Positions 3,271 to 60,436 of a stretch of 64,000 nucleotides of DNA are shown here, piece by piece; position 1 is the stretch's first letter; each line of letters starts with the position of its first letter. The notes below the pieces were generated by a model. It ran no database searches, had not been told where the DNA came from, and saw nothing but the letters and a program-made list of their open reading frames with translations. This DNA comes from Stegostoma tigrinum (Eukaryota), in the NCBI RefSeq assembly GCF_030684315.1, contig NC_081385.1, forward strand, positions 21,481,247 to 21,545,246. The letters are read 5' to 3'. The translations under genes were made by a program, and so were the position numbers.

Positions 3271-3922
3271 TTGAAATGGCTCGGGGACCGCTTTGCAGAA
3301 CACCTCCACTCGGTTCACAATAAACAACTGCACCTCCCAGTCGCTAACCATTTCAACTCTGCCTCCCGTTCTTTAGATGACATGTCCATCATGGGCCTCC
3401 TGCAGTGCCACAATGATGCCACCCGAAGGTTGCAGGAACAGCAACTCATATTCCGCTTGGGAACCCTGCAGCCTAATGGTATCAATGTGGACTTCACCAG
3501 CTTCAAAATCTCCCCTTCCCCTACTGCATCCCTAAACAGCCCAGTTCGACCCCTCCCCCCACTGCACCACACAACCAGCCCAGCCTGTCTCTGCTTCCCT
3601 AACCTGTTCTTCCTCTCACCCATCCCTTCCTCCCACCTCAAGCCACACCTCCATTTCCTACCTACCACCTCATCCCGCCTCCTTGACCTGTCCATCTTCC
3701 CTGGACTGACTATCGCCTCCCTACCTTCCCACCCATACTCTCCTCTCTACCTATCTTGTTTTCTCTCCATCTTCGGTCCGCCTCCCCCTCTCTCCCTATT
3801 TATTCCAGTTCCCTCTCCCCATCCCCCTCTCTGATGAAGGGTCCAGGCCCGAAATGTCAGCTTTTGTGGTCCTGAGACGCTGCTTGGCCTGCTGTGTTCG
3901 TCCAGCTTCACACTTCGTTATA
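3271..3922 (+). mobile_element. Penelope-like element 3' part (GIY-YIG C-terminus plus terminus with hammerhead motif)
   Basis: LGDRFAEHLHSV...PVANHFNS...LQEQQLIFRLGTLQPNGINVDF; C-rich 3' region; ctgatgaagggtccaggcccgaaatgtc at 3831-3858. Confidence 0.8.
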
Positions 3923-4099
3923 GAGAAAGTGAGTTGTTGATTTGATAAAGGCATTTTGCAAATGTCTTAGACTGATTAACAGAGAGCTGAGTAATGAGGT
4001 GTTTAACTGCAGTTTCCTTTCATGGTCACACAATTGTATACTCGGGAATAGCATGATGTAATAAGGCTTCTTATATAAAATAAATCAACTTTTCATTCA

Positions 4100-4190
4100 G
4101 TGATAATGGGAACTGCAGATGCTGGAGAATCCAAGATAATAAAATGTGAGGCTGGATGAACTGTGTTCATCCAGCCTCACATTTTATCAA
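4100..4190. mobile_element. Palindromic remnant of two head-to-head Penelope termini
   Basis: Perfect 23-bp inverted repeat 4139-4161/4165-4187; same sequence as the terminus at 54957-54980. Confidence 0.7.
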
Positions 4191-5164
4191 CTTTTCATTT
4201 AGTCCTGTTGAAATCCTCACTGCTTTTGACTTTTCCAGCCGCGTGTTGCTGCCAAATTTTAATGGCTTATGAGTTGATAATAAAAGGTATAGTTTTAAAA
4301 AAACTTGGTAAAAGAACTAAGGGCAACATGTGGAAGACAATGAGTAGTTAGGTGCTGTTTGATAAAGTGAAGGACATAGATTGGTCTTCAAAAGGCAACT
4401 GAATAAATACTTCAGGGAGAAAAAGCAATTGCAGGGAAATGGGAAAGAATGGAAAAGTATAACCAGCTGGATAACTTAAATCATTTTTCAAAACTAATAG
4501 CACATATTTGACAGGATGAATGGTATCATTCTCTGCTGTAGTTTTCTATGGTTTTACTATCATTCTCCAGCATTCAATTTTAATACTGACTTCATTTTTC
4601 GGGCAATTTTTGGGCATTTCACCTCTAAATTCTGGCCAAAAATTAAGATTAATGCTTGAATATTTAAGTGTAGTAATAAAGTGTTTTAATCATCTCATCT
4701 GCAACATTTTAGTTGTCCTCTATGTGCACAGCGTGACACCATATATTACACCAACCTCCTCTATTACAATACTAACCTTACTTACTACCTGAATGCTTAG
4801 TAAATTCACTTATTCATTTATATACTGTGTTACAGATTAACATCTGCTAACAAATTGTAGAAATTCTTGCTTCTTATTATATCACCAGTGCTACAAATTA
4901 AACGCAGCTGAAATTTTGGTTAACAAGTCAAAATTGCCAGCAGCAGTGACGATTTCAACAGGACTGAATAAAAAGTTGATTTATCTCAGAGGAGTGGACT
5001 TATTACATTGTAATCACCAATTTACTCCCAAATATAGAATTATGTGACCACAAAGGAAAACTGCATTAATTGTGTGTGTGCAACCAAACGTTTCACTCCA
5101 ATTTCCAAGATCTGGCATAGCATAAGTTGATTAAAATTGCTCCAGGCAATATTCCTATTTTAGG

Positions 5165-13564: not shown

Positions 13565-14830
13565 AGCCCTAGGCTTTGCCTCCACCACATCTGCTCCCAA
13601 AATGAGGCGTCCCACTCCCGGGCATCCCAGGTGTCCTCGTTTGTCAAGGACCACAACTCCCCCTCCACAGTGGTTGAAAACACCCTCAACCCTGTCTCGC
13701 GCGTTCCCTGCACTTCAGCCCTCACACTCCCTACCCACAATAACACCCAAAACAGAAGCCCCTCATCCTCACGTATCACCTCATCAACAACAGGTTTCAA
13801 AGCATGATCCTCTGCCATTTCTGCCACCTACAATCGGAACCCACTACCAAGGATATTTTTCTCTCCCTACGCTTATCTGCTTTCCCGAGACACCGCTCTC
13901 TCCATGGCTCTCTCGTCTGCTCCACACTCCCCACTAGCTCCAGCACCCCGGCACTTTTCCCTGCAACCACAGGAAGTATGACACCTGCCCCCTCACCCCC
14001 ATCCCATGACCCAAGAAAACTTTCCATATTAAACAGATATTCACCTGCACATCTGCCAATGTGGTATATTATATCTGCTGTTCCTGATGTGGCCTCCTCT
14101 ACATCAGGAAAACCAAGCACAGGCTTGGAGACCATTTTGTGGAACACCTACACTCGATTCTTGACAAACGACAACACCTCCCTGTCTCAAACCACTTCAA
14201 CTCCCCCTCCCTCGATGACATGTCCATCCTGGGCCGCCTCCAGTGCCACAATGATGCCACCCAAAGACTGGAGGAGCAGCAGCACCTCATTCTGCTTGGG
14301 AACCCTGCAGCCCAATGGTCTCCATGTGGACTTCACATGCTTCAAAATCTCCCCTCCCCCACCGCATCCCAAGACCAACCCATCTCGTCCCTGTTTCCTT
14401 GACCTGTCCATCTTTTCTCCCACCTGTCTGCTTCTCCAACCTCACTGACTAACCCCCAGCTCCACTTCCTACCTACTAGATTCACCCCCACCTCCTTGAC
14501 CTGTCCCGTCTTTTCTCCCACCTACCTGCCCCTCCCTCCCTCCCCACTGACCAATCCCCATCCCAACTCCCGACCTACACTCACCTTTACTGGCTTCATC
14601 TCAGTCTCTTTGACCTGTTCGTCTTCTCCGCTCCTCTCTAAACCTTCTATTGTTGCCTCCCCCCTCTCTATTTATTTCAGAACCCCCTTCCCCGCCCCCA
14701 TTCCTGAAGAAGGGTCTAGACCCAAAACATCTGCTTTCCTGCTCCTCTGATGCCGCCTGGCCTGCTGTGTTCCTTTAGTCCTTCACCTTGTTATCTCAGA
14801 CTCCAGCGTTGGCAGTTCCTACTATCGCTA
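13565..14830 (+). mobile_element. Penelope-like element 3' part, same family as 3271-3922
   Basis: LCLHHICSQNEASHSR and EHLHSILDKRQHLPVSNHFNS...LEEQQ; decayed hammerhead core at about 14704-14731. Confidence 0.8.
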
Positions 14831-15010: not shown

Positions 15011-17524
15011 CCTCAAGCATTACCCCATCTGCTGCAGGGCTTTCTACATGCTGTCCTTAAAAAGCTCTCCTGGATACATTTTAATAATTCCGCTCTGTCT
15101 AAGCCCTTCACACTTCATATATCCCTAAATTCCAGGAAGGCAAAATCCTCTAATATTATCCTATTCACTTTATGCTTCACTGAGATTTGCCTATATACTA
15201 CCCTTTTATTTCTTACTGTCAGGTTGACTGTATAGAACATAGAACAGTACAGGCCCTTCAGCCCATGATGTTGCGCCGTGGAATAATCCTAATCCAAAAA
15301 TAAAATAACCTAACCTACATTCTCCACAATTCACTGCTGTCCCTGTGTATGTCCAGCAGTCGCTTAAATAAGAACATGTTTAATAAATGTATTGTTCCCT
15401 TTGTTTTCACGTTCTCTCTCTTGAGGAACCTTCTAAAACCGTCTATTGTGGTAATTGATTCTTTGATCAATATTGCAAAACGATCTCTTCTGTTACACAC
15501 TCCTCCCGGCCCTGCCTAAAGATTCTATACCCCAGAATTATTGAGCTGCCCTTCCCTCAACCATGTTTCTATGATAGCAATGATATAAATCCCCAGGTGT
15601 TAAACCACACTGTCAAAACACCTGCCTTCCTCGTAAGACTCCTTTCATTCAAATAATGCTATCCAGCTTTGCCATTCTCCCTCTGTGTCATAACGGGACT
15701 ATACATACTCTGTCTTCCCCACAATTTTGATATTTTCTCCATATTTGTCTGTACACCACCTCTCGTTATCCCTGCCCCTGCCAAATTAGTTTAAAGCCCC
15801 ACCAATTGCAGCAACAAACACCCCATGAGGATGTTAGTCTGGTTTCACTTTATGAAAACCCATCAGATTTATGCAGGTCACACCTTCCCCAAAAACTAAC
15901 CCAGTGATCAGGAATCTCAAGGCCTCCTTCCAGCAGCAACTCCTTTGCGACACATTCACACCACTTGCTAAAATGCAAGGTGCTGACATTTCAAAATTTC
16001 AAGGCAACTGCTCTGTGCATTGATGTAAAATATTCCCTGTTGTAAAAGAATAGTCTTTGTTCTCATGTTTTAGTTTTCAAGGTTACAGCACCTGGACTCC
16101 GAAAACACTGTTCCTAACAAGCCGAATTGAGTCATCTTGTTTAATGTTTTATTTCTCATCTGAGCTTGAATGGAATTTTACTGTAGTTCAAACATCATTT
16201 CATCAACTCCTCTTTGTGGTATATTTTCTGAACCCATTTATTTGTCAGATACTTGTATTTTCAGCCTTGAATTACCCTTCAGGTTTTTTTTATTGCTGCT
16301 CAAATGAACAAAAGCTGGAACAGTAATCAAGAGTGAAGGCCAGGCTGATTTTTGCTCCCTTTGCTTCAGGGGGAAAAAAAATCAGCATGGCCTTCACTCT
16401 TGATGATGGTTGCTAAGATGTGGTGCCCCTCTCTACAAACGTACAGATGCGCAGAATTAAGTGACTTGGCCAAGGCATATCAGAGCTGAGAAAGAAGCAG
16501 AAAAATGCGGAAGTTTTTTGTGGAGAGAAAAATAGAGTTAACACTACATGATGATGGCTTTCCGTCTTAACGGAAAAGAGATCTAGGAATCTGGCACTTG
16601 CCGGCTATCTTTTGTTCACTTTTGATTTTAATTCAGATGTTAATGAGAAATTTATTGCAAAGAGCAGGAGAAGGGATATGCAATGGTATTCACCAATTAT
16701 ATATCCACTCAACTGTTATTCCATTAAAATGGTAAGTTTGAAATTCTTTAACTGCATATTCATTGCAAAGAGTTAGTTCGGAATAACTGGGATGCTTATA
16801 AAACATGCACTGTACATTAAACAAGCAATTCTGATAAAATTTTATGATTCTGCTCCTCAAATCTCTTTCTTATTTTATATCTTCCTCAAAATGTTTGAAA
16901 ATCATCCAAGAAAGCTGTGGCTTCATGGGCAGAGGTCATCCTCTGAGTATGCAATCCTTTTAGCAAGTGTGTTCTGACATCAAAGATAGGAGCTGTTGAA
17001 CAGTAAAGATCACAGACATTATCTAGAATATAAAACATGAGAACTTTTGGTAAGAGGAAAATAAACATAAGTTAGGAACAGATAGATTGTGATCTTTAGC
17101 AAAGAATTAAGGTCACATCAAAAGCAACTGCAAAATAAGAAATTCTGGCAACTGTTCCCCTCCGATCTGCTGACACTACAATTCCTAGAAATAATTATGA
17201 TTAATAAGATTTACCACAGCACAGTTGAAACGGCCTATTGCTTGTCTATTAATTTGGTTTCAGAGTAAAATCTTCTAACTACAATTGTTTTGATAAGAAT
17301 ATGACATCTAGTTCACACTAAAATGGTTATACAAAAGCAAAACAAATGGAACCTGAAACAATGAAAATGTTGGAAATCTGCAATAGGAAAAAAAACTCTG
17401 AACACAGCAGATCAAGCAGCATCTATGGTGAGAAAAATTGAGTCAACATTTCATTTTGATGTCCTTACATCAGATGGCCAGTTTTGAAAAATGATTTTGG
17501 AACTGGAATATTACTTTTTCAAAG

Positions 17525-21489: not shown

Positions 21490-23470
21490 AGATGCCAATT
21501 CCAACTGTCCATACTCAAACACAGCTACACTCCCCCTCCTCTTGGACACCATCCCAAGGCCTCCTACCCTCCCTTGACCTCTTTATCTCTAACTGCCATC
21601 GAGACATCAATCACCTCAACCTCTCCACCCTCTCACCCACTCCAACCTCTCTCCCACAGAACATGCAGCCCTCCCTTCCCTCCGCTCCAACCCCAACCTC
21701 AGCATAAAATCCACAGTCAAGAGGGGCGCAGTTGTAATACAACACACTAATCTCTACATCGCCAAGGCCAGACCACCTTTTTGATCATGACCCCACCCCC
21801 GACCACCAAAACATCATCTCCCAGACCATCCACAACCTCATCACTTCAGGTGATCTCCCACCCATACCCTCCAACCTCATCATTCCCCAACCCCACACCG
21901 CCCACTTCTATCTCCTTCCCAAAATCCACAAACCGTACTGCCCTGGTCAACCCATCGTCTCCGCCTGCTCCTACCCCACCAAAATTATCGACTCAATTTT
22001 CTTCCCTTTGGTCCAGGAACTCTCCACCTACATCCGTGACACCACCCACGCCCTCCACCTCCTGCAAAACTTCCAATTCCCTGGTTCCCAACACCGCATC
22101 TTTACCATGGATGTCTCATCCCTATAGACTTGCATTCCCCAAAGGCTCTCTGCTCCTTCCTGTCCCACAGGCCTAACCAGTCCCCCTTCAATGACACCCT
22201 TATCTGAACTCATCCTCACCCTTAACAACTTCTCCTTCAATTCCTCCCACTTTCAAAGGTATTGGCCATGGGCACATGCATGGGCCCAAGCTATGCCCGC
22301 CTCTTTGCAAAATACATAGAACAATCCATCTTCTGAAGCTACACTGGCCCTACACTGGTTTGTGGATTTTGGGAAGGAGATAGAAGTGGGCGGTGTGGGG
22401 TTGGGGAATATTGAGGTTGGAGGCTGTGGGTGGGAGATCACCTGAAATGATGAGGTTGTGGTTGGTCTGGGAGATGATGTTTCAGTGGTCAGGGGTGGGG
22501 TCATGATGAAAGAGGCAGTAGGAGGTGCTGTCAGAGAGCTGGTGTCTGGCCTTGGCGATGTAGAGATTAGTGCGTCGTATTAAATTAAAGACTCTATCAG
22601 CACCGCCTCATGTTCCCATGAGGAGCTCAAACAGTTCAACCACTTCACACCCTGACCTTACGTTCAGCTCTCTCTCCTTCCTGGACCTCTCGGTTTCCAT
22701 CTCTGGCAACCACCAGTAAACTGACATCCATCTCAGGCCTACCAACTCCCACAGCTACCTAGAATACACCTCCCACCCACCTTCCTGAAAAAACGCCAAC
22801 CGCTATTCCTAATTGCTTTGCCTCCATCGCATCTGCTCCCGAGATGAGGCATTTCACTCCCGGACATCCCAGATGTCCTCGTTTTTCAAGGACCGCAACT
22901 TACCCTCCACAGTGGTCAAAAACGCCCTCGACCACGTCTCTCGCATTTCCTGCAACTCATCCCTCACACCCCATCCCTGCAATTACAAAAAAAAATCCCC
23001 TTCATCCTCATTTACCACCCCACCTACCTCCAAATCCAACACATCATCGTCCAGCACTTCCACCATCTGCGATCTGACCCCACTATCAAAGACGTTTCTT
23101 TCTCCCCACCTCCCTAACCTTTGTCCTTCCTCCCACCTATCCACTCCTCCTACCTCAAGCCCCACCCCAACCTCCTACCTTCCACCCTTATCCCGCCTCC
23201 TTGACTTGTCCATCTTCTCTGGACTGATCTACCCCCACCCTAACTCCCCACTGACACTCACCTTTACTGGCTCCATCCCCACCTCTTTGACCTGTTTTGA
23301 CTCCTCTCCGCCTATCTTCTCCTCTATCCAACTTCCATCCACCCCTCTCTCTATTTCAGAATCCCCTTCCCCGCCCCCATATCTAAAGGTTCCAGACCCA
23401 AAATGTCAGCTTCCCTGCTCCGCTACTGCTGCTTGACCTGCTGTGTTCATCCAGCTTTATGCCTTGTTAT
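21490..23470 (+). mobile_element. Penelope-like element, longer RT-containing copy with internal inverted duplication
   Basis: FYLLPKIHKP, FTMDVSSL and GLAMGTCMGPSYARLF-type RT remnants; same terminus as the other copies. Confidence 0.8.
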
Positions 23471-44985: not shown

Positions 44986-46364
44986 AAAGTTGATGTGTTA
45001 ATGTTAAAGTTAAGTGAATGGTACCATGTATGTACAGCAAAGTAACACACTTTTCACTGTATTTTTACATTGAATATATGTGACAATAAATGATTCAATT
45101 AATCAATCAAGTGCAGAATCAATGTCCACAAGTACTAGCATACAATCTCAGCTGACTTTGATGCTTCAGTACTGACCTCCCCATGTATCAATCAATTACT
45201 GTATTTTCCCAAGAGAAGTCTGCAATGTTTTTGATGGTGCCTTGGATGATTTGTGATGATCACATTGATACTGCTTTGGTCTGGGACAACACCAATAGTA
45301 ATCTGCTTAGGGATCCAGCCGTCATCTCTGCGGGGACCTCAGCTGCCTTGCGGGAAGCATTGCAGAACTCTTACGGTACCTGTAACAGACTCAGAGTAAC
45401 GCATCAAATGGCTGGCAGTAAGAACAAAGGTCTACTCCAATTTGATTTTAATCTTCACCTAAGTGCCATGCTGTTTCGAGGCATGACCATGGAGTCAGCC
45501 AAACGGAAATCCAAGGATGCAAAGACAGTGGCATTCCTTGAGGGCACAATAGCAAGTTATGAGAATTTCTCCCAAATCTTACTAACAAATTCTTGAGAAA
45601 CAGAAAATCTTTAAGATCTTAGATACCTTCGAGTAAGTCAGCCTCCCCTATGAACACAATCTCAACATGACGCTGAATCACAGCTTACTTCCTTCATCTA
45701 GTAGATCTTCTGCTAGGCATACAATTCACAATTTTTGAAACACAGTCTGTGTGTTTCAGTGTTCCCATTGTCTGTGCTGAGACCCTAATTAACACCACTA
45801 CCTACAGAACTGAAAATATTCTCCCATTTTACAAATTCCATTGATTAAAGTCTTCTCCCATACAAAGTTCAATATTCTGTCTGGCCTCCTATTTAGCAAG
45901 TTCAGCTAGGTCCCAGTCACTCCAAAGTATCAAAATCAAGTCTACATCCTTATTTTCCATCCTTTCCCTTATCTTAACTGTGCAGCCTCTTTTCAAGCCA
46001 AGTAAATTCAATTTAGCTTAATCATGATTCTGCACCAACATCCAGTATCAGATAACATTTATTTCATCACTGCATTGCAGCTCTTTAAAATTTTCCTAAA
46101 TTATATCACATTATTGTCCCAATCACTATTGTTGAAAGGGGTCTCAAAAAACTCACTGATCTAACAAAAAATTTTGTCTTCTCTTGCTTTTCAAAGCCTG
46201 ACTTCAATACTGACCATTCAGTTTTCACATCTAATGAATATACACCCAAACAATGGTTTGGTATTTAAAAGGGTGGCTGACCTGATATGTTTGCGAGCAA
46301 TTTCCATTCGAAAAGTAGAATACTGCAAAGGCTTAAGGTCTATTGTAAAATCAAACTATCTGAA

Positions 46365-46950
46365 TTTCCCCTCTCAGTATTTTGCTTTCCTTCACTTGAT
46401 ATCTTGCTCTTCTATTTCACTCGGTAAGTTGCTCTCCCTCCTCACTTGGCATCTGGCTCTGCTTCATTCAGCTACTCTCTCCCTCCTTTGCTTCAGCATC
46501 TTGTTCACCTCCTTCACTCTGTGTCCCACCCTTTCACTTGGCAATTCAATCCCTCCTTCACTTGGTGCGTTGCTCCCTTTTACTCAGTGTCTCAATCTCT
46601 TCCTCCTTTCAATATCTCGTCCTTTTCCTTCACTCAGCATCTCAGTCTTACCCTCACTCTGTGTTCTATTCTCTCTATTCATTTGGCAACTACTTTTCCT
46701 CGTGGCTTGTTTCTCACACTTATCCTATTTATCTCGCTCTCCTTCAGTCAGCATCTCACTCCTTCCTTCACTCCTGTCTTACCTTCTTTTACCAGCTTAT
46801 TCAGTCTCTTTCACTCAGGATCTCATGTTCCACCTTGACTCAGTGTTTTGCACTCCTTCCCTTGACTTCTTGCTCTTTCACTTCACTCAGTATCTCACTT
46901 TGCCCTTCACTCAGCGATTTACTCTCCTTTACTTGACTTCTTCTGCTTTT
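46365..46950. repeat. Pyrimidine-rich degenerate tandem repeat block
   Basis: Units resembling TTCACTCAGCATCTCACTCTCC (about 22 nt). Confidence 0.8.
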
Positions 46951-47323
46951 CATCTTAACTCCATTTGTTTCATTTCCTTTTCACTTTCAAGCTATTTCAT
47001 ATTCTCTAGCTCTTTGTTTCACTTTGTCATTTGCCATTGTCTCTAATTCATGCTGCTTCACTTGCAATTCAGTTCTAGACATTTTCAATAATTCCCACTG
47101 CATTCTTGGCAATTGGAAATGCTGAACTCTTGCTACAATTATCTCACTTTTCTTCATGGACACAGACAACTCCAAGGTCAGCTTGCCTGCCATTACCAAA
47201 AGCTTTCCCTTACTCACCTTTTATAAACCAACCCACTGACTTCTTCCAGACTGAGGAACTCTTAGCCACTGAAAAAAAAAACCAGCATTACACAAGGCAC
47301 ACCCTATTTCAACCTACTGAATG

Positions 47324-48314
47324 TGTTACGAAGTTAGGTAGAGAAATTGTGAGGTGGAAGGCAGGAAGCTAAAATGTGTGGTTCATTTAAAGAGATTTGT
47401 GCTTTGATTGTAATGTATGTCTGTGAGCAGCAGCTGAAATTGCCAGTACAGGAAGCCTCAAAAAGTGAAACAAGTGTATCAAAAAAGCCTTACAGGTGGC
47501 AGCCAAAACAGCAGACTTGTTTTGTTGTTGTGACAATGAGCTTGAATTCAGCCAATTAATTTAAAACCAAACTCAGCGATTCAAAGCTAGTTGAATTTAA
47601 ATTTGATGGTGTTGACAACCTGAAATCAATCATATAAGAAATTGATTTTGTCATTACAGGTGTATAAGATGAGAACATTTGGATAAATCGGAGACAACGA
47701 ACTGCCATCTGAAAGAGAGAGAGACAACTGCCACCTGCCAGAGTCAGTACCATTCAGCTCTCAGAAAAAGCCCATTTACTGAGTCAAAGGCAACACGGTG
47801 TTTCAGATCCAAGTCCTCATTGAACAAATTATCAAAATAAAACATTCCTGACAGCAGAATTAGCGGAAGGAAGATGTTTGTGAAGAGAGCAGAGATGACA
47901 GAGGATTCCAGAAGACAGTCTGTGCAAGCTTGGAGAGATAAAGTTATAATTTACTGCTTCTTATTAATTGGGTTTTTACTCGTGGGAACTGTTTTTATTT
48001 AAACAGCATTCTAGTTGAATTTAGACAAGTTAGGGAGTAGTTAGTAGTCTAGGGGAATGGCAGTTTGTTATTAATTTTGTTAATTTGTTCATTGTTGGGT
48101 TAAATAAATAAAATGTTTCTTGTTACTTGTAAAGTGGAGATCAGGATTTTTTTTCTTCTGACCACACTTAAAAGAGATTATGAGGAGAAACGCGAGCTTC
48201 TCTAAGTGTTTAGAGGGTAATTATTAGAGGAAATCCACTATTCCTGTCATAACAGTTCGGGGCTTGTGCTTTATTTTAATTTTCAGAGGGGTTCAGCCAT
48301 TCCCTGTCATAACA
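47324..48314 (+). mobile_element. LTR-like element, same family as 37053-38027
   Basis: TGTTAC...ATAACA ends; shared block cagccaattaattt...gaatttaaat.tgatggtgtt.acaacct.aaatcaatc; shared 3' end tcagaggggttca. Confidence 0.7.
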
Positions 48315-48999
48315 AAACAATACCTGAGAAGTTAAAAGTGAACACCACGCTCACTCCTCACTGTCTTTCGGTCCTCTAATACTGAATCCAAAATGGTATC
48401 AGAAATTTCATTCTCAGACAAAACCCCAATTTTGTTATGAATCACGCACCCCCACCCCCACCCCAAAATATCGTCAGCAGCTCGGCCCGTCCCTAACGTA
48501 TATTTTTTTTAAAGGCTAGTGTAAGATGCTGTGTTTCAGATATAATTCCTTTGGCCCACCACTAGGCTTTAAGTAAAATGCACTTTATTCTTACAACCTG
48601 GTTAAAATACAAACGAAAATAAGAACTGGCACAACTATTGAAATACATAGCAAGGTAAAGTACTATTTAACCACTAATCCTCAACTGTTCCAATATCAGT
48701 AGCATCCCATAAACACACCCTTTAGCAGGAATGCATTCAGCAAAATAGTTCTGGGTTTCATGTGTTACAGAAACCTTCTTCCTAACTAATTGAAAGCCAG
48801 CCTAAAACTCTTTCTGGGTCTGTGTGAGCCCTGACCCTGCCCACTCATGCTTCTATTGTCATATTAGAAAAAACTCACTCAAGTAAAATCCAACATCTGT
48901 TTATCAATTGCCTGTGTGAAGGAGACAGACCACTGTGGCAACATCTCTCTGCATGAGAAACAGAACACACCTCTATTAAAGGCACAGTACTGTTATGTT

Positions 49000-51900
49000 C
49001 TACAACTCTTGGCGTCTCAATCTCACCCATTATTCAACGTTTCGCTATTTTCCTTCACACGGTATCTCCATCTCCTCTTGTTTCGCACTCTCAAGTCACT
49101 TGACAGCTCACTTTCCTTTTGACTGGTCTTGTCGATCTCTTCTTTTGCATGGTGTCTCGCTCTCCGTATTTCACTCTGTTCTTCACTTGGTATCTCGCTC
49201 TCTTTTACTCAGCATCTCACTCCCTCATTCACTCGGTATGTTGCTTTCCTTCAGTCAGCATCTCACTGTCCCCTTTCACTCGGCAATCTGCTCTCCTTCA
49301 TTTGATGTCTTGTTTTCCTATTTCACGTGGTATCTTGCTCTCCCTCGTCGCTCGGCATTTAGCTCTTCATTCGGCAACTATATCCCTCCTTTCCTTCGGC
49401 ATCCCACTCTCTTTCTTCACTCAGTGTCTCACTCTGCCTTTCACTCAGCATTTTGTTCTCCTCTGCTCAGTGTCTCCTTCTCCCTCTCCTTCAGCTGGCA
49501 TCTCATTTTCCTCTGGTCATGACATATTTCCTGTTTACTCAGCGTCACACATTCCCCCTTCACTTCCAACCTACTCTCCCTCTTGTGATCTTGCATAACC
49601 TTTTCACATGGCCTCTAATACTCCCTCTTTTCTCAACATCTCATTCTCCTCCTCACTCAGTGCCTAGCTCTCCTCCTTCACTGTGTCTCACTCTCTTATT
49701 CAACACCTCACTCTTCTCTTTCACTCGTTATCTTAATCCTGCCTTTATTCAGCATCTCACTGTCTCCATTCACTTGGCGACTCACTTTCCTCTTGACTTG
49801 TTCTTTCACTCTCCTTTGCTCAGCATCTCACTTGCCCCCAGACCTTTGCTCTCCTTCACGTCTCACTCCCTCTTCTCCTTTCATTCAACATCTCAATCTC
49901 CTCCTTCACTCAGTGTCTCACTCTATCCTTTCACTTGACATTTCATTCTCCTTCTCTCAGCAACTCAGTCCCTTCTTCACTCGGTCACTTGCTCTCCTTC
50001 AGTCAGTGACTCACTCCCTCCACTCGGTGTCTTGCTCTCCTTCAATCAGCAATTCAATCCCTCCTTCACTCGGTGTGTCACTGCCTTTTACTCAGTATCT
50101 CAATCTCCTCATTCTCTCAACATCTCACCTTCCTCTTTCACTCCGCATCACAGTCTTGCCTTCACTCAACGTCTTACGCTCTATTCATTTGGCAACTCAC
50201 TTTTCCTTTTGACTCGTCTCCTCACTCATCTTATTTATCTCGCTCTCCTTCACTTGGCATATCACTCCCTTTTTCACACCATGTCTCGCTTTTCTTCACA
50301 AAGCTATTCACTCCCCTTCACTCAGCATTTCACTTTCCACCTTCACTCAATGCTTTGCTCTGCCCTTTCACTTGGGTGTTTCAGTCTCCTCCTTTGCTTG
50401 ATGTCTCACTCTCCTTCAATCGGCATCTCATTTTCCCTTTCTCATGGCATCTTCCTCCCCCTGTTCACTCAGCGTCACTGCCTCTCTCCTCACGCAGCAT
50501 CACATTTCACCCCTCACTCATGGTCTTGCTCAACTTCTTCACTTGGCATCTCACTCTTCACCTTCACTTGAAGTCCTGCTATTCTCTTTCACTCGGTATC
50601 GCAAACTTCTTCTTTACTTGATGCCTCCCTCTCCTCCTCCACTCAGTTGTCTTAATCTTCCCTTCACTTGATGCCTCATTCCCTCTACTCACTTGAATGA
50701 TTCACTCTGCTCTTGATGCGTCTTCTCACTCTCCTTCGCATGGCATTTTGCTCTCCTTCACTCAGCATCTCACTTTCTCACTTCACTCAGCCTTTTGATC
50801 TCCTTTCACTTGATGCCTTGTTCTCCTACCTCACACGATATTTTGTTCTCTCTCTCTCTCTATACTCGTGTCTCACTTTCTGTCAACTGGCAACTCATTT
50901 TCCCCATCTCACGGCATCTTGCACTCCCTGTTCACTTAGCATCACTCTCTACCTTCACTCATGGTCTTGCTCAGCCTCTTCATTGGGCACCTCATACTTC
51001 TCCTTGAAAGATCTCACTCTCCCCCTTCACTTAAAGTCTTGCAATCCTCCTTCATTCGATATCACAATCTCCATTTCACTTGACATCTCGGTCTCTCTAT
51101 TCATTTTGCAACTCAGTTTCTTCTTGACTCATCTTCTCACTTCTTCGCATATCGTATCACTCTTCTGTGATGCCATGAGATGGGGAAAATGAGGTGCCAA
51201 TTGACATATAACTCTGCTTCACTCAGCATCTCACTCCATCCTTCATTCACATCTTGCCCCTCTTCGCTCAGTATCTCAATCTCCCTTTGACGTCTTGCCC
51301 TCTCTTCAATTAGCGACTCACATCCCTCTCAGCTCATCTTCTCATTCTTCTTCGCATGGTGTCTTGCCCTCCTTCATTCAGCATCTCAATCTCTTTCACA
51401 GGGCATCTCACTTTTCCCCCTCTACTCGACATTTTTCTCTCCCTCACTTGAAGCCTTATTCTGTTACGTTGCTTATTATCTCATTCTCCCTCTTGGTGTC
51501 TCGCTCTCCTTCAAGTGGCATCCCATTTTTCCCTTCTCATGGCATCTTGCTCTCCCTGCTCAGTCAGCATCACACTCCCCTTGACTCGCCACCTTACTCT
51601 CACCATTGAGTTGTCATCTTTCTCTACCTCATCTCATCAAATGTTTCATGTTCCTCCTTCTCTCAACATCTCAATTTGCTCCTTCACACAGCCTCACTCT
51701 CTCTCACTACACCATACCTCACTCTTCACCTTCCGTGTTTCACTTGACCACTTCAATCAGTGCCTTGTGCTCTCCTTCTCTCAACAAGTCATTCTCCTTC
51801 TTCAGTCAGAGCCTCACTTTCCCTTTTCACTTAGCACCCTCTTCTCCCTTTTACTATCTTCATTCAGCATCTCATTCTCCTTCACTCAGCCATTTACTTA

Positions 51901-53820
51901 ATGCGTCACTCTCCTCCTTCACCCAACATCTCGCTACCCTCCTTCACTTGGTATTTGAATCTTCTCGTCACTCAGCATTTCACTCTCTATTCACTTCGCA
52001 ACTCACTTTCTTATTGACTTGTCTTCTCACACTCATTTATTTGGCATTTAACTCTACTTCACTTGGTGTCTTGCTCTCTTTCATTCAGCATCTCACCTGA
52101 ACCCTTCTCCCAGCAACTCACTCCCTCCTTAACACAGCATCTCTTTCCTTTATTTAACAACTTGCCCACATCTGATGTTAGGCTCACTGTTCTATAGTTC
52201 CCTGGGTTTTCCTTAACATCTTTCATATATAGTGGAAACCACACTAGACAATCTCCGGTCTTCTGGCACTTCATTTGTGGCTATGAATCATACAAATATC
52301 TCAGCAAAGAGCCTAGCAATCACTTCCCTACTTTTCTACTTCCCGACCTTCCCACAGGTCCCAGGGATTTATCCTTCTTTAAGGGTTTTAAGCCATCCAG
52401 CACCTCCTCCTATATAACATGGACATTTTTCAAGATGTTGCCATTTATTTCCTCACATTCTATATCATCCATATCCTTCCCCACAGTTATCACATATGCA
52501 AAATACTCCTATAGCATCTCACCCATTTCCTCCAGTTTCACATATAGACAGCCTTACTGATCTTTAAGGGGCCCCACTGTCTCCCTAGTCACCCTTTTGT
52601 CCTTTATACATATTTATAAAATCCAATGGATCCTCTCTAACCTTATTTGTCAAAGCTATCTCACGTTCCCTTTCTTGCCCTCCTGATTTTCCTCTTAATT
52701 CGTTGTCGATTTTCACTCAGAATCTGGCTCTCCACCTTAACTTGGAATTTTGTTCTTCCTCCTCTTCATAGCATCTCTCTCTCTCTCCACCATCACTCAG
52801 CATCTTGTTCTCACTCTTCACTGGGTATCTCGCTCTTCCCTTCACTCGGTGTATGGCTAACCCTTTTCATTTGGTATCTCACTCTCCATCTTCATTCCAA
52901 ATCTTTCTCTCCTTCATTTGGCGTTCTGCTAATCTGCACTTGGCATCTTGCTCTAGCCTTCACGAAGCGTTTCACTCATCCCCTTCACTCTTGCCTCTCA
53001 TTCTTCATCAGTTGACATCTCATACTCCTTCACATGGAATGTCATCCTCTCCTTTCATTTGCTGTTTTAAGATCCTTTACGCAGCAACTCCCTCCCTCCT
53101 TTCATTGGGCATTATGTGCCCCACTACAAAATGCTTCACATTCCTTTCTCTCAACATCTTGGTCTTCTTCACTCACTGTCTGGTTCTCCTTCACCAGAAG
53201 TCTCACACTGTCCCTATTGGCTTGTGTCACTTTCCCATTTACTCAGCATCTCACTCAACGCATCGCTCTTCATCGCACTCTTCCCCCCATCCCCTCACCC
53301 CCACTTTCTTGGTGTCTCACTCTTCTTCATTCAGTGTCTTGCACTCCTACACCATTACCTTCCATCCAGCATCTCACTCTCCCTCATTCTAATGTCTCAC
53401 TCTTCTCCTTCACCTGACGCCATGTTCTCCCTCTTCAGATGGAATCTCATTCTTCCTGTTTCACAGAGTCTCTCGCTCCATCTTCACTCTGCATCTTGCA
53501 TCTTGCTCTCCTTCTCTCGGATTTTTGCTCTCCTTCATTTGACAACTCCAGCTAGCCTTCAGCTCGGTCTCTTGCTTTCACCTTCACCTGGGTTCTCATT
53601 CTCCCCCATCCCATTCTCCTTCACTCAACGCCTCATCCTCGCCTTCACGTTCAGTCTTGTTCGCCCTCTATTGGATGCCTCACTTTTCCCATCTCTGACT
53701 GGAAGCCTCACTCCAATTGTCGTCCGGGGGGGGGGGGGGCATCTCCCTCCTTCAGTTGACGTCTTACGCTCACGCTCTCTTCCCCATCACTTAGTGCCCC
53801 GCTCCACTTCTGCAGCTCAG
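49000..53820. repeat. About 4.8-kb pyrimidine-rich degenerate satellite, interrupted by a CR1 fragment at about 52150-52700
   Basis: Recurring CACTCAGCATCTCACTCTCCTT-like units; strong C/T strand bias; produces many spurious S/L/F/H-rich ORFs. Confidence 0.85.
52150..52700 (-). mobile_element. CR1 ORF2 fragment inside the satellite
   Basis: KENPGNYRTVSLTSDVGKLL motif on the minus strand. Confidence 0.75.
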
Positions 53821-54039: not shown

Positions 54040-54420
54040 ACGAGAATTAAGCCCGTTCACTTTCTAATTTACACAGCCATCGACGCCTACCACCACTGGA
54101 GGTGCTTGTCTTTTTACGACAGTGCGGCAGCGGTGGGCGGGGCCCCGTCGTAAAACCTTCCGTCGGGCGAACAGGCCTTGCCGGCCGCCGGCGATGCTGC
54201 GCACGCGCGTTCTCGGTGCCGGCTTTAAAGCCGCCGGCGTGTTCATTGCTTGCAGCCGGCTGTCCCGGGGTTTTGCTTCGTGTCTTCGTTCCCGTCACTC
54301 GGCCTGTCCCAGCTTCCAGGCCCGGCTTAGCCGCAGCGAGCAGGAGCCGCTGTCTCCCAGCTCCGGCCCGCTCCTCTTAGCCCAGTCTCACGCCGCCATG
54401 GCCGTCCAGAGTATGGCCAA
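54040..54420 (+). promoter_or_regulatory. REXO2 CpG island / promoter with GC box
   Basis: Sharp rise in GC and CpG content over exon 1; GGGCGGGG at 54135-54142. Confidence 0.75.
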
Positions 54421-54445
54421 GAGGATGGTCTGGGTGGATCTGGAG
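54194..54445 (+). CDS. REXO2: REXO2 exon 1 (putative mitochondrial presequence plus [16 protein letters not shown])
   Basis: ATG 54194 opens an Arg/Ser/Leu-rich leader; second ATG 54398 in GCCGCCATGG; donor GAG|gtaaag. The 3' part is secure; the upstream start is inferred. Confidence 0.85.
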
Positions 54446-57400
54446 GTAAAGCTTGCCCCTACCTCAAACTCAACCCTAGCCCCAGCCCCTACTCACTCTA
54501 ACTCGCTCCCCAGCCTGTTAGGGCTTTCTAATGGTAAATTTAATGTATCCCTGGGGAACAGGAGGGAACACCTCTGCATCGCCCTTACCCACATTTGCAA
54601 ACTTTACCTGCTGTTTTGCAAAAGATGATTTCGTTTTGGCGCAGTTGTGAATAATCCTGCACCTTTAACTCGTCCAGACTTTTACGTGGTTTGTGTTTCT
54701 TTTTTATTTTTTGCACTCCAACCCCGCCTAAATGTGGCCTGAGTGCGGTCGTTTCCAGAGACTTGCAGCAAATGCTGGTTGCTCTGCCACGTTTCTATTT
54801 TTTTTCTTCTAAACTTTGCAGCAATTGTCTTGTGCTGTGTATAATTTGGGGAGTGGGGGGAAAGGGAGAGAGACAGTAGAAACACCTTAGCTCTGATGAA
54901 GGGTCTAGGCCCGAAACGTCAGCTTTTGTGCTCCTGAGATGCTGCTTAGCCTGCTGTGTTCATCCAGCCTCACATTTTATTATCTTGAAACACCTTAGCT
55001 GGTGGTTTTACTAGATCAGATTTAACGTTGGGAATGCTTGGTGGTATGGCATTTGCAGCATCTGTGCTGTGCTAGTGAATGAGAGAGATGATGCCGGTTT
55101 ACGGAATGGTTTTTCTACAGTGAGCTGTGGCTATGCTGTTGTTGTACTTGCTGGACTATAGTGTGGTTTTTTTCTTGTCCCAAAAAAATTAGTAACTTGA
55201 GTATGCAAACCTGATCAAATCTAGTGTGATGCTCAAGATCTATGCAGGTTTTTCTGCTTGGGTGGGAAATTGAAAGCCTACAGGTAGGAAGTCTGCCTGT
55301 TTGGCAGACTTTGCTGTAGAGTAGGTGGTGTTTGCAGGAAGGGTTGTGTAGATGAGATTTGTCTTCTATGGCTTGTGCACTCTCTTCAATAGCTTATCTT
55401 CACTTCTGAGTGTATCTGATGAAATCTTCTGTTGTGCTTGGTGCCTTCCTGAAAGGGCCTTCTCCCTTTTATAGGTCTGTTACAAGTCTGGGTCTGGAGG
55501 TTTGACCACCTTTCCAGAAGGTTTCAGGACATGTGCTTTGACTATATCAATCTAGTGCAATCAATGCTGTAGTCTTCAGATTGACCATAGTCTTGATCTT
55601 TGATATAAAGGTGCAGGTACCTAAAGAAGTTTTACATGGTGCATTTTTAGAATTGACTTTGCTTTAAGTTTTGTTGATGCAGCCTGTTTTAAGTTTCTCG
55701 CTAATTTTTTTTTGTACAGAGCTGTGTTCCAAGTTGCATAGAAGTGACTGATGTGTAGAGAACCAGAATAATGCTTTGCCTATTGTAATATAGAGCTTCA
55801 GGATTTCCAAAAGTTTGCTGTTCATTAACAGCATATTGCAGTTGGGACTGTACTTTTTTCTTATTGTGGCTTTTTATAAAAGGACGAAAAACAAATGTGA
55901 TCTGACACTTTTGCTTTTGTCTCTAAACAGATGACTGGATTGGACATAGAAAAAGATAAAATCATAGAAATGGCATGCATTATAACTGATGCGGATTTGA
56001 ATATTTTAGCTGAGGTAAGATGCCTTAAAGTTCTAGGAAAGAATCTATTTTAAATTTTGGATATAGATATTTAAATTTTAGACTTTTGTGTAAAGCAATC
56101 ATTTTCTTTCTATTAGGGTCCACACTTGATTGTCAACCAACCAAATGAGCTATTAGATGGCATGTCAGAGTGGTGTACAGAACATCATGGAAAGGTATAT
56201 TACTGTTCACTATTTCAGATTTGTACACAAGTCAAGAATTGACAAGCATGTCTGAAATGTCAGTTCTGCCCATTCCTTAAAGAACAGTTTGGTACAATGT
56301 GGACTACATGTTCAATATAGGGGTTGCTTGTACATCAATCTTTCTGTCCTTGAAAGATGTTAAATTGTGAAATGCTTATGTAACATTTCAATTTTTCATG
56401 AACATCTTTCCTGCCTCCAAAGATTCACTTGCAATCATCTTGGTGACTGACTGCACTTTAGTAATATCCTTTGCAGTGTTGGGATCGAATGTTAATGACT
56501 TAACTCTTCAGTCTTTGTATATTTAAAGAGGAGCTTGTGGAAGAATATGCATGCTTTAGTTTTATAGAAGTCAGTTGTTGAATTTGTGGGATATTTAGGG
56601 GAGCAAAATTTGATGTACTGTAATTGAATGAAGATGGATTGCTCTGAACTCTTTATTAAATGTACCATTAGTTTTGTTCACATAATGGAAGCTCACTGAA
56701 GTTGACATCTTGATATAGATAAGGTGCAGTGCTGGATGAACACAGCAAGCCAAGCAGCATCAGAGGAACAAGATAGATGAGGTTTCGGGCCGAGACCCCC
56801 CCTCCAGGAAAGAAGGGTCTAGACCCGATATGTCAGCTATCCTGCTCCCCAGCTGCTTGGCCTGCTGTGCTCCTCCAGCTCTGCACCTTGTTTCAATTCT
56901 GCAGGTCCTACTATCTCTGAAACAATGAGTATAGATGTTGCAGTTCACAAAAAGACAGTCCCCCACACACACAAATTTACCTTTACCTTGAGCCATAGAC
57001 TTTCAATCACTGCATGTTTTGTCTAGGGGGTGGTGGTTGCAAGGGGATGTTGGGGTTAGGTGGTAATCTGTGGGCATCATTAAGGAACTGAGGTTTTGAA
57101 ATGCTCACTGCAGAATTTTCGCAATAGCATGAAGTACAATTTAGTTGTATGTAGTGAAAACAGAATAAAGACTAGGAATAGGGGTGAGGTGATTGAATAA
57201 AAGAGCTCACTTCACAATATATTACAAATTACTGATTACTTTTCCTCCATTCTAAAACTCTCTTTTGATCAAGAGAGCACCTTTTTTAAACTTCAGCTGA
57301 CTTTAGTCACCAAGTAAGATTATAACTTCAGTTCCATGTATAACAGTGAGAATGCAACAACATCTGCTATGGCAGAACAGGTGCCTGATGCAATTTCTAG

Positions 57401-60400: not shown

Positions 60401-60436
60401 CTAGAAAATGGTGACAATAGCAAGCAAGAGAGCTAG
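54194..60436 (+). CDS. REXO2: Oligoribonuclease, mitochondrial/cytosolic (DEDDh exonuclease), whole gene span, 7 exons: 54194-54445, 55931-56014, 56117-56194, 58084-58195, 59181-59289, 59427-59480, 60301-60436 (825 nt, 274 aa)
   Basis: Spliced product contains [16 protein letters not shown] (ExoI), [13 protein letters not shown] (ExoII), [17 protein letters not shown] and [14 protein letters not shown] (ExoIII); all introns GT-AG and in frame. Confidence 0.97.
54889..54924 (+). ncRNA. Minimal type-I hammerhead ribozyme motif (Penelope terminus-derived), REXO2 intron 1, sense
   Basis: agct-CTGATGA-A-GGGTC-TA-GGCCC-GAAA-CG-TC-agct: both core boxes, helix II, palindromic ACGT helix III and GUC triplet are present. 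Confidence 0.7.
54893..54986 (+). mobile_element. Short Penelope terminus insertion flanked by a 14-bp direct repeat (probable TSD)
   Basis: GAAACACCTTAGCT at 54879-54892 and 54987-55000; the insert matches the 3' terminus at 3831-3922. Confidence 0.8.
55931..56014 (+). CDS. REXO2: REXO2 exon 2
   Basis: cag|[28 protein letters not shown]|gtaaga. Confidence 0.96.
56117..56194 (+). CDS. REXO2: REXO2 exon 3
   Basis: tag|[26 protein letters not shown]|gtatat. Confidence 0.96.
56715..56920. mobile_element. Inverted pair of Penelope termini (hairpin element) in REXO2 intron 3
   Basis: aaggtgcag.gctgga.ga.cacagca.gccaagcagc ... gctgcttggcctgctgtg.tc.tccagc.ctgcacctt. Confidence 0.7.
57625..57890 (-). 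mobile_element. DeuSINE-like SINE
   Basis: Reverse of the 2361-2715 family (cagcatt.ttattgcc; tctggaatcacataggccagacc). Confidence 0.6.
58084..58195 (+). CDS. REXO2: REXO2 exon 4
   Basis: cag|[38 protein letters not shown]|gtaag. Confidence 0.96.
58245..58880 (+). mobile_element. Old CR1 3' fragment in REXO2 intron 4
   Basis: Degenerate ttatgaggataggctggg.ttgttttc.ttggagcagag and CR1 tail. Confidence 0.6.
59181..59289 (+). CDS. REXO2: REXO2 exon 5
   Basis: tag|[36 protein letters not shown]|gtaag. Confidence 0.96.
59427..59480 (+). CDS. REXO2: REXO2 exon 6
   Basis: tag|[18 protein letters not shown]|gtgagt. Confidence 0.95.
60301..60436 (+). CDS. REXO2: REXO2 exon 7 (last coding exon)
   Basis: tag|[44 protein letters not shown]. 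Confidence 0.95.

Follow-up and report, generated by a model that had tools for sequence, protein, structure and literature searches.

Among the systems described so far, those closest to the locus analyzed here are the minimal hammerhead ribozymes (min-HHRs) of metazoan Penelope-like elements (PLEs). Monomer cleavage of these ribozymes was undetectable and dimer cleavage was low (PMC4209133), and the hammerhead of an Anolis PLE cut only with the element's protein present (PMC11167929). Hammerheads are also found in non-LTR retrozymes, of which about 43% in Xenopus overlap introns, sense intronic copies being common (PMC7229834; bioRxiv 10.64898/2026.07.22.740005). The latter source, a 2026 preprint, sampled one cartilaginous fish. 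Here, we analyze a stretch of 64,000 nucleotides of shark DNA, referred to as the window, in which a hammerhead motif lies in an intron of REXO2. We consider it quite probable that the insert carrying this motif is a lineage-specific 94-bp PLE stub, that the completion of its helix I by host DNA is a by-product of junction microhomology, and that the ribozyme is nearly inactive in REXO2 pre-mRNA.

A 94-bp insert in intron 1 of REXO2

The host gene is REXO2, as the initial annotation had proposed: the exon matches lie on the same strand, and the insert occupies intron 1 in sense orientation. Exon 2 (55931-56014) matches mitochondrial oligoribonuclease with an E value of 6.5e-11, and exon 4 matches oligoribonuclease; further exon-like stretches, as far as about position 60436, we take by eye to belong to REXO2. 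Intron 1 extends from 54446 to 55930 on the forward strand (1485 nt), and the predicted ribozyme cut lies 475 nt into it, at the position originally given, and 1011 nt before exon 2. An in-frame upstream ATG (54194-54445) lengthens the frame by 68 residues ahead of the second ATG of REXO2, with an abundance of R, S, A, and L. This N-terminal addition is likely a mitochondrial targeting extension and presumably resembles the human gene. A long region just upstream of REXO2 (46350-53650) is made up of degenerate, pyrimidine-rich repeats that recur about every 22-25 nt, and intron 3 harbors an older head-to-head pair of pLTR fragments (56700-56925), both with broken cores.

A check of the sequence confirmed an insert of 94 nt (54893-54986, forward strand) between 14-bp repeats. 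This insert is a stub of a Penelope-like element that comprises a solo pLTR and lacks the optional 3' tail. The two 14-mer copies, at 54879-54892 and 54987-55000 on the forward strand, are identical and have no further occurrence on either strand of the 64-kb window; the chance of this 14-mer at any given position is about 5e-9. The 5' strand of helix I is made up of the final four bases of the left copy, of which the last two (CT) equal the native element flank. The right copy starts with G54987, which also equals the native continuation of the element, and the 3' end of the insert is thus ambiguous by 1 nt. Its start had been placed exactly at CTGATGA. This holds to within 2 nt, since the native flank, as seen in the copy at 3831, and the target both end in CT.

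Contigs of four of the 20 public runs listed for the locus were mapped on 54380-56200. Two runs were from organism A (X1 and X2), whose samples share one study and one of which may be the source of the assembly, and two were from a relative, organism B, and belong to two studies. Each of the two organism B runs has a contig in which 54851 is connected to 54996 by 16 letters, too few to accommodate the insert or a pair of 14-mers. The insertion is therefore probably lineage specific, as its presumed youth had suggested, being absent from organism B in two of two runs, and the hammerhead insert is not conserved across these species. An empty site with two copies of the 14-mer, named beforehand as the case against a duplication, was not seen in organism B. 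Identical repeats together with a relative lacking the insert uphold the reading as a target-site duplication. In both organism A runs, contigs lead out of unique sequence into the insert from either side (54380-54915, without any difference, and 54966-56200), and among the joints listed for the two samples none runs across the insert, as an empty allele would give. This is equally expected for a tolerated and for a mildly useful insert. At 55167, 55241, and 55803, both organism A runs disagree with the window at full depth, reflecting assembly errors or another allele.

On the searched stretch, organism A yielded 80,670 and 79,522 contigs and organism B 10,650 and 7,868, which corresponds to an about eightfold better representation of the family in organism A. 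Depth on 54868-54989 piled up to millions versus 10-20 in the flanks, depth not being equivalent to copy number. The Penelope family is clearly very large.

The hammerhead motif and its predicted folds

Judged by its sequence, the insert is a minimal type-I hammerhead of the Penelope-like kind; every sequence feature looked for in this kind was found. The core (54893-54920, forward strand) contains the previously noted elements CUGAUGA (54893-54899), A54900, GAAA (54913-54916), CG, and UC, corresponding to the conserved CUGANGA/GAAA/UH of min-HHRs (54893-54899, 54913-54916, and 54919-54920). The extra A54900 is the single base between positions 9 and 10.1, as in min-HHRs. Helix II is closed by the pair G10.1-C11.1 (G54901-C54912, pair probability 0.88-1.0), and the palindromic 15.2-16.2 segment is ACGU (54916-54919), with which helix III is possible only in a dimer. 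Helix II had been described as 5 bp with a 2-nt loop, which the folding corrects to 4 bp (54901-54904 with 54909-54912) and a CUAG loop. The cut is predicted after C54920, and AGCU (54921-54924) follows. The 3' strand of helix I with the distal GUG spans 54921-54930 on the forward strand, and 54921 is the landing point of the deepest short joints listed for the family. Helix I closes the motif with the 4 bp annotated for the host flank (54889-54892 with 54921-54924), beyond which CAC (54883-54885) indeed pairs with GUG (54928-54930) across a 3x3 loop. With the native flank, taken from the copy at 3831, it comprises 2 bp only, as had been noted; described cases have 2-5 bp.

The motif had been called apparently intact. 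This is true of the sequence but not of the Rfam match or of local fold stability, which equals that of shuffles (z 0.00). In Rfam, neither the window (E<=5) nor 54850-54960 (E<=10) gave a hammerhead match, which is expected because the motif lacks helix III. A canonical type-I hammerhead is thus not present: there is no Rfam match, and no bases lie between 15.2 and 16.2. Another core-like match, at 55416, has neither helix II nor the palindrome and was dismissed as a chance occurrence.

In the folding model, which takes no account of Mg2+, tertiary contacts, or proteins, the probabilities of the three outer pairs of helix I are 0.8-0.96 for contexts of at most 251 nt and about 0.5 for 401 nt, and those of the helix II pairs are 0.87-1.0 for contexts of at most 251 nt. 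The open-core fraction of the same core was 6.7e-3 with the host flank versus 3.7e-6 with the native flank, a difference of about 1800-fold, and it amounted to 0.6-0.7% in four contexts of 57-251 nt. The model thus bears out the claim that the host-supplied helix I is far better than the native one. The preferred fold of the monomer mispairs the core, 54895-54898 with 54917-54920, and even the open form lacks helix III. Cutting in pre-mRNA would require another molecule or help from the element's protein. A double hammerhead came to -26.9 kcal/mol, a rough sum as this structure is non-nested, which is weaker than two inactive monomers (-28.6 kcal/mol), and a helix II-swapped dimer was far stronger (-43.8 kcal/mol). 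We rejected the swapped dimer as the active form, as helix III would stay unformed in it. Small PLE hammerheads reportedly cleave as dimers. On the sense strand of the gene no second palindromic core was found, so that there is no partner in cis. At the quoted mammalian transcription rate of 3.5-4.1 kb/min (PMC10919898), exon 2 would be reached about 15-17 s after the cut site; transcription in sharks may be slower. Family RNA may be abundant enough to provide partners in trans. With the monomer mispaired, helix III lacking, and a partner absent from the gene, the folding predictions do not support cutting of REXO2 pre-mRNA, and they make it unlikely that such cutting matters.

The Penelope-like family and its joints

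Six other stretches within the window are related to the insert. The comparison copy at 3271-3921 (forward strand) comprises the end of a GIY-YIG domain, the native flank, and a decayed hammerhead, and matches the insert with 89% identity over 91 nt. The ORF end ahead of its hammerhead at 3831 shares 87-88% identity with proteins predicted for Rhincodon typus and Stegostoma tigrinum, which points to a shark as the host. Both P0002 (88% identical to window positions 3271-3504) and P0003 are proteins with reverse transcriptase (RT) and GIY-YIG sequence, and three decayed copies within the window align to them. In Pfam, P0002 scored 23.2 bits for GIY-YIG (cut-off 22.6), and RVT_1 was found with an E value of 9.3e-5, under its cut-off. 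At its C-terminus, P0003 agrees with the reading frame of the insert in 13 of the final 14 residues, which ties the insert to an element with RT and GIY-YIG; these protein alignments substantiate the Penelope-like origin proposed initially and place the insert in the pLTR. At residue 318, P0002 has a CX4CxxC linker between RT and GIY-YIG, of which decayed versions remain in P0003 and the window copy at 13947. A CX2-5CxxC linker between RT and endonuclease is described as a feature of the Neptune/Nematis clade (PMC8557442). By its linker, the element would be a Neptune-type Penelope-like element of this clade. The decayed ORF fragments of the window by themselves had no match in Pfam or NCBIfam, a protein atlas hinted only weakly at GIY-YIG (15% of one cluster), and no solved relative of P0003 was found. 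Exact-pattern scans of viral, bacterial-genome, and metagenome contigs detected no copy of the family.

Three of the seven aligned copies continue into the tail, and four end at the short end like the insert; the long end lies about 35 nt further. Inverted pairs of the family occur at 4098-4193 and 56700-56925. The former is part of a head-to-head fold-back (4084-4199), which has one tailed arm, no hammerhead core, a 14-bp duplication (4084-4097 and 4186-4199), and weak microRNA-like Rfam matches. The native flank at 3800-3830, 14670-14703, and 23350-23380 has a pyrimidine tract and then CAG about 22 nt before the core, resembling a 3' splice site; PLEs with introns near the ribozyme are known (PMC4209133). 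Elsewhere in the window, nested inverted repeats at 21735-22582 (159 nt at 93% and 39 nt at 95%) overlap a decayed Penelope RT region (22107-23096), and a 41-bp hairpin at 16319-16411, 85% complementary and with a sub-threshold MIR167-like Rfam score, is probably a small inverted-repeat element.

Contigs of organism A also contained joints between family copies. The deepest short joint listed for X1 runs from 54987 to 54921 with GA between (depth 545); a GAA form reached 129, and the single-copy flank about 19. For X2, joints between the same positions were listed with GA (321.5) and with G (294.7), the flank being at about 10, and one direct joint runs from 54987 to 54920. Since position 54921 directly follows the predicted cut and the element natively continues with G or GA, the short 3' end of one copy appears to meet a copy that starts at the cut. 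The short joints, of which there were 120 besides those listed, carry no orientation, and an inverted reading also falls within at most 1 base of the cut. We saw no microhomology that would force the 54987/54921 joint. These joints are likely the result of a template jump after the reverse transcriptase had left a ribozyme-cut RNA, and they may record cleavage in vivo; they may also derive from one amplified event. No joint of this type was among those listed for organism B. Another joint, from 54931 to 54891, corresponds to a 41-nt tandem duplication of the hammerhead, present in 4 contigs with depths of 218.6 (X1) and 129.7 (X2). Short self-similarity inside the element may explain this duplication. 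Tandem-duplicated hammerheads would have a dimer partner in cis and may therefore be better candidates for activity.

If substantiated, genomic joints at the cut would constitute indirect in vivo evidence for hammerhead cleavage in PLEs. The role of the hammerhead in endonuclease-bearing PLEs has been termed unclear (PMC8557442). No report of genomic joints at a hammerhead cut was found in the mostly open-access literature searched.

Probable origin of helix I and possible cutting of the host transcript

The structure of the insert suggests the following course of events. The element's endonuclease would cut the two strands 14 nt apart, as judged from duplications observed twice. Reverse transcription would start inside the RNA near 54986-54989, giving the shorter of the two 3' end classes; the classes are observed, and priming is deduced from the Anolis element. 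It would stop a few bases ahead of the core, and the cDNA end would then anneal to the target overhang via CT, or via GCT with an extra G. Because the element flank ends in CT, such junction microhomology gives two helix I pairs for free, and CT or GCT annealing alone would give two to three of the four pairs, with one or two left to chance. Short microhomology is described for 5' junctions of PLEs (PMC3846280). G followed by the native CTCT preceded the core in three of the eight short joints listed for X1, and this G is possibly a copied cap at an RNA start just ahead of the core. In simulations, a helix I of at least 4 bp arose at 47 of 3000 random sites and at 52 of 600 sites ending in CT. 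Of 1687 GCT sites, 857 had a fourth pairing base. Thus, ordinary junction microhomology of 2-3 nt plus chance would explain the pairing of helix I. What speaks against a mere by-product is the quality of the landing site, as the open-core fraction of the REXO2 copy was reached, among simulated window sites, by only 3 of the 3000 random ones and 8 of the 600 that end in CT.

This quality, which puts the site in the top 0.1-1.3%, also favors the idea that the host flank activates the ribozyme, which, assisted by another RNA of the family or by the element's protein, would cut REXO2 pre-mRNA to a measurable extent. High pairing probabilities of the outer helix I and of helix II in contexts up to 251 nt are in line with this, joints on the predicted cut suggest that the family can cut, and intronic ribozymes can reduce mRNA, as described for CPEB3 (PMC10919898). 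However, the monomer is mispaired and without helix III, helix I pairing drops in the 401-nt context, the double hammerhead is weaker than both the inactive monomers and the swapped dimer, a cis partner is missing, exon 2 follows only 1011 nt (about 15-17 s) later, and the insert is absent from organism B. We thus regard a measurable cut share as very improbable. The same low expectation holds for the broader proposal that the landing site decides the folding of each copy and that the REXO2 copy, completed by the duplication and aided by RNA or protein in trans, cuts the host pre-mRNA. If landing-site activation were true, about 1% of the family's tens of thousands of copies would be cutters activated by their host, and the joints at the cut site would be a genomic record of family cleavage in vivo. 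With the REXO2 copy and the native flank, a natural comparison is available for asking whether a landing site can activate a ribozyme. The single REXO2 locus matters little, being one stub of a very large element kind that is already known.

The initial annotation had alternatively suggested that the insertion was guided to AGCT by homology. In such a mechanism, the 3' strand of the ribozyme's helix I would pair with target DNA during integration, making a host-completed helix I the rule in this family. The target end is indeed the exact complement AGCT, which has a frequency of 0.4% in the window and of 5.7% given CT, but this is a single event chosen post hoc from a very large family. Such targeting predicts a large group of loose ends at 54889. 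None was found at 54889 or 54890 among the best six groups per run, where CT and T groups dominate (the largest upstream ones listed for X1 have 1029 contigs at 54892 and 520 at 54891); this test is weak, as 629 further rows exist and the groups mix native flanks and true ends. Moreover, the Anolis element primes at AT-rich DNA that is non-homologous to its RNA (PMC11167929). We consider guidance to AGCT very improbable. Still more improbable is a different history, in which the insert predates the split of organisms A and B and was deleted in organism B, or in which the repeat stems from break repair instead of the element's endonuclease. Compared with what a clean empty site should show, about 20 nt of flank are additionally missing in organism B, as a deletion might cause. 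Against an older insert or repair, the 14-mers are identical although the two organisms are about 10% apart in REXO2 intron 1 (47 other letters in 472 nt), the last 30 nt of the insert are identical to the copy at 4132-4161, a second insertion of the same family (4098-4185) likewise has a 14-bp duplication, and the family is far better represented in organism A. A lineage-specific PLE stub with a helix I completed through microhomology therefore remains our preferred reading, and it is this reading that we compare with described systems below.

With endonuclease-bearing PLE insertions (PMC3846280, PMC8557442), the family shares solo and inverted pLTRs, target duplications, 5' microhomology, and an optional tail; the duplications of rotifer PLEs measure 8-10 bp, compared with 14 bp in two insertions here. 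The Poseidon element PAc of Anolis (Frangieh et al. 2024, PMC11167929) likewise has a hammerhead near the ATG in its pLTR and two 3' end classes, with an optional tail of 30-40 bp between them, which mark two internal priming sites. Unlike PAc, the shark family has the zinc-finger linker of Neptune/Nematis, and whereas no RNA reads ending at the cut are reported for PAc, genomic joints of the shark family land there.

Non-LTR retrozymes (PMC7229834; bioRxiv 10.64898/2026.07.22.740005) are, like the insert, short non-coding PLE-derived sequences with a type-I hammerhead. They consist of tandem units running from cut to cut, whereas the REXO2 locus has a single copy; we rejected an identity as a retrozyme, the locus holding one unit and not at least two tandem hammerhead units. 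RECK/HH9-type hammerheads (PMC6155905) and CPEB3 (PMC10919898) share with the REXO2 motif the location of a ribozyme motif on the sense strand within an intron. They are conserved across species and complete as monomers, in contrast to the REXO2 motif, which is lineage specific, without helix III and without an Rfam match, and predicted to be nearly inactive in pre-mRNA. An identity as a canonical or conserved intronic hammerhead was dismissed on these grounds: no Rfam match, no helix III of its own, and absence from organism B.

The closest agreement is with the min-HHRs of metazoan PLEs (Cervera and De la Pena 2014, PMC4209133), with which the insert has in common the full core, the unpaired base between positions 9 and 10.1, the G10.1-C11.1 pair, the palindromic 15.2-16.2 segment in place of helix III, the location in the pLTR, and the existence of many solo copies. 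Helix II has 4 bp here and 6-8 bp in the min-HHRs of Schistosoma and Drosophila. A native helix I of 2 bp is also found in D. virilis, where splicing alters the 5' strand; here, host DNA extends it. Sharks are not among the animals named for min-HHRs in the accessible part of this source, and its supplement or that of the 2026 preprint may already list this Penelope family. On sequence grounds, the REXO2 insert belongs with the PLE minimal hammerheads.
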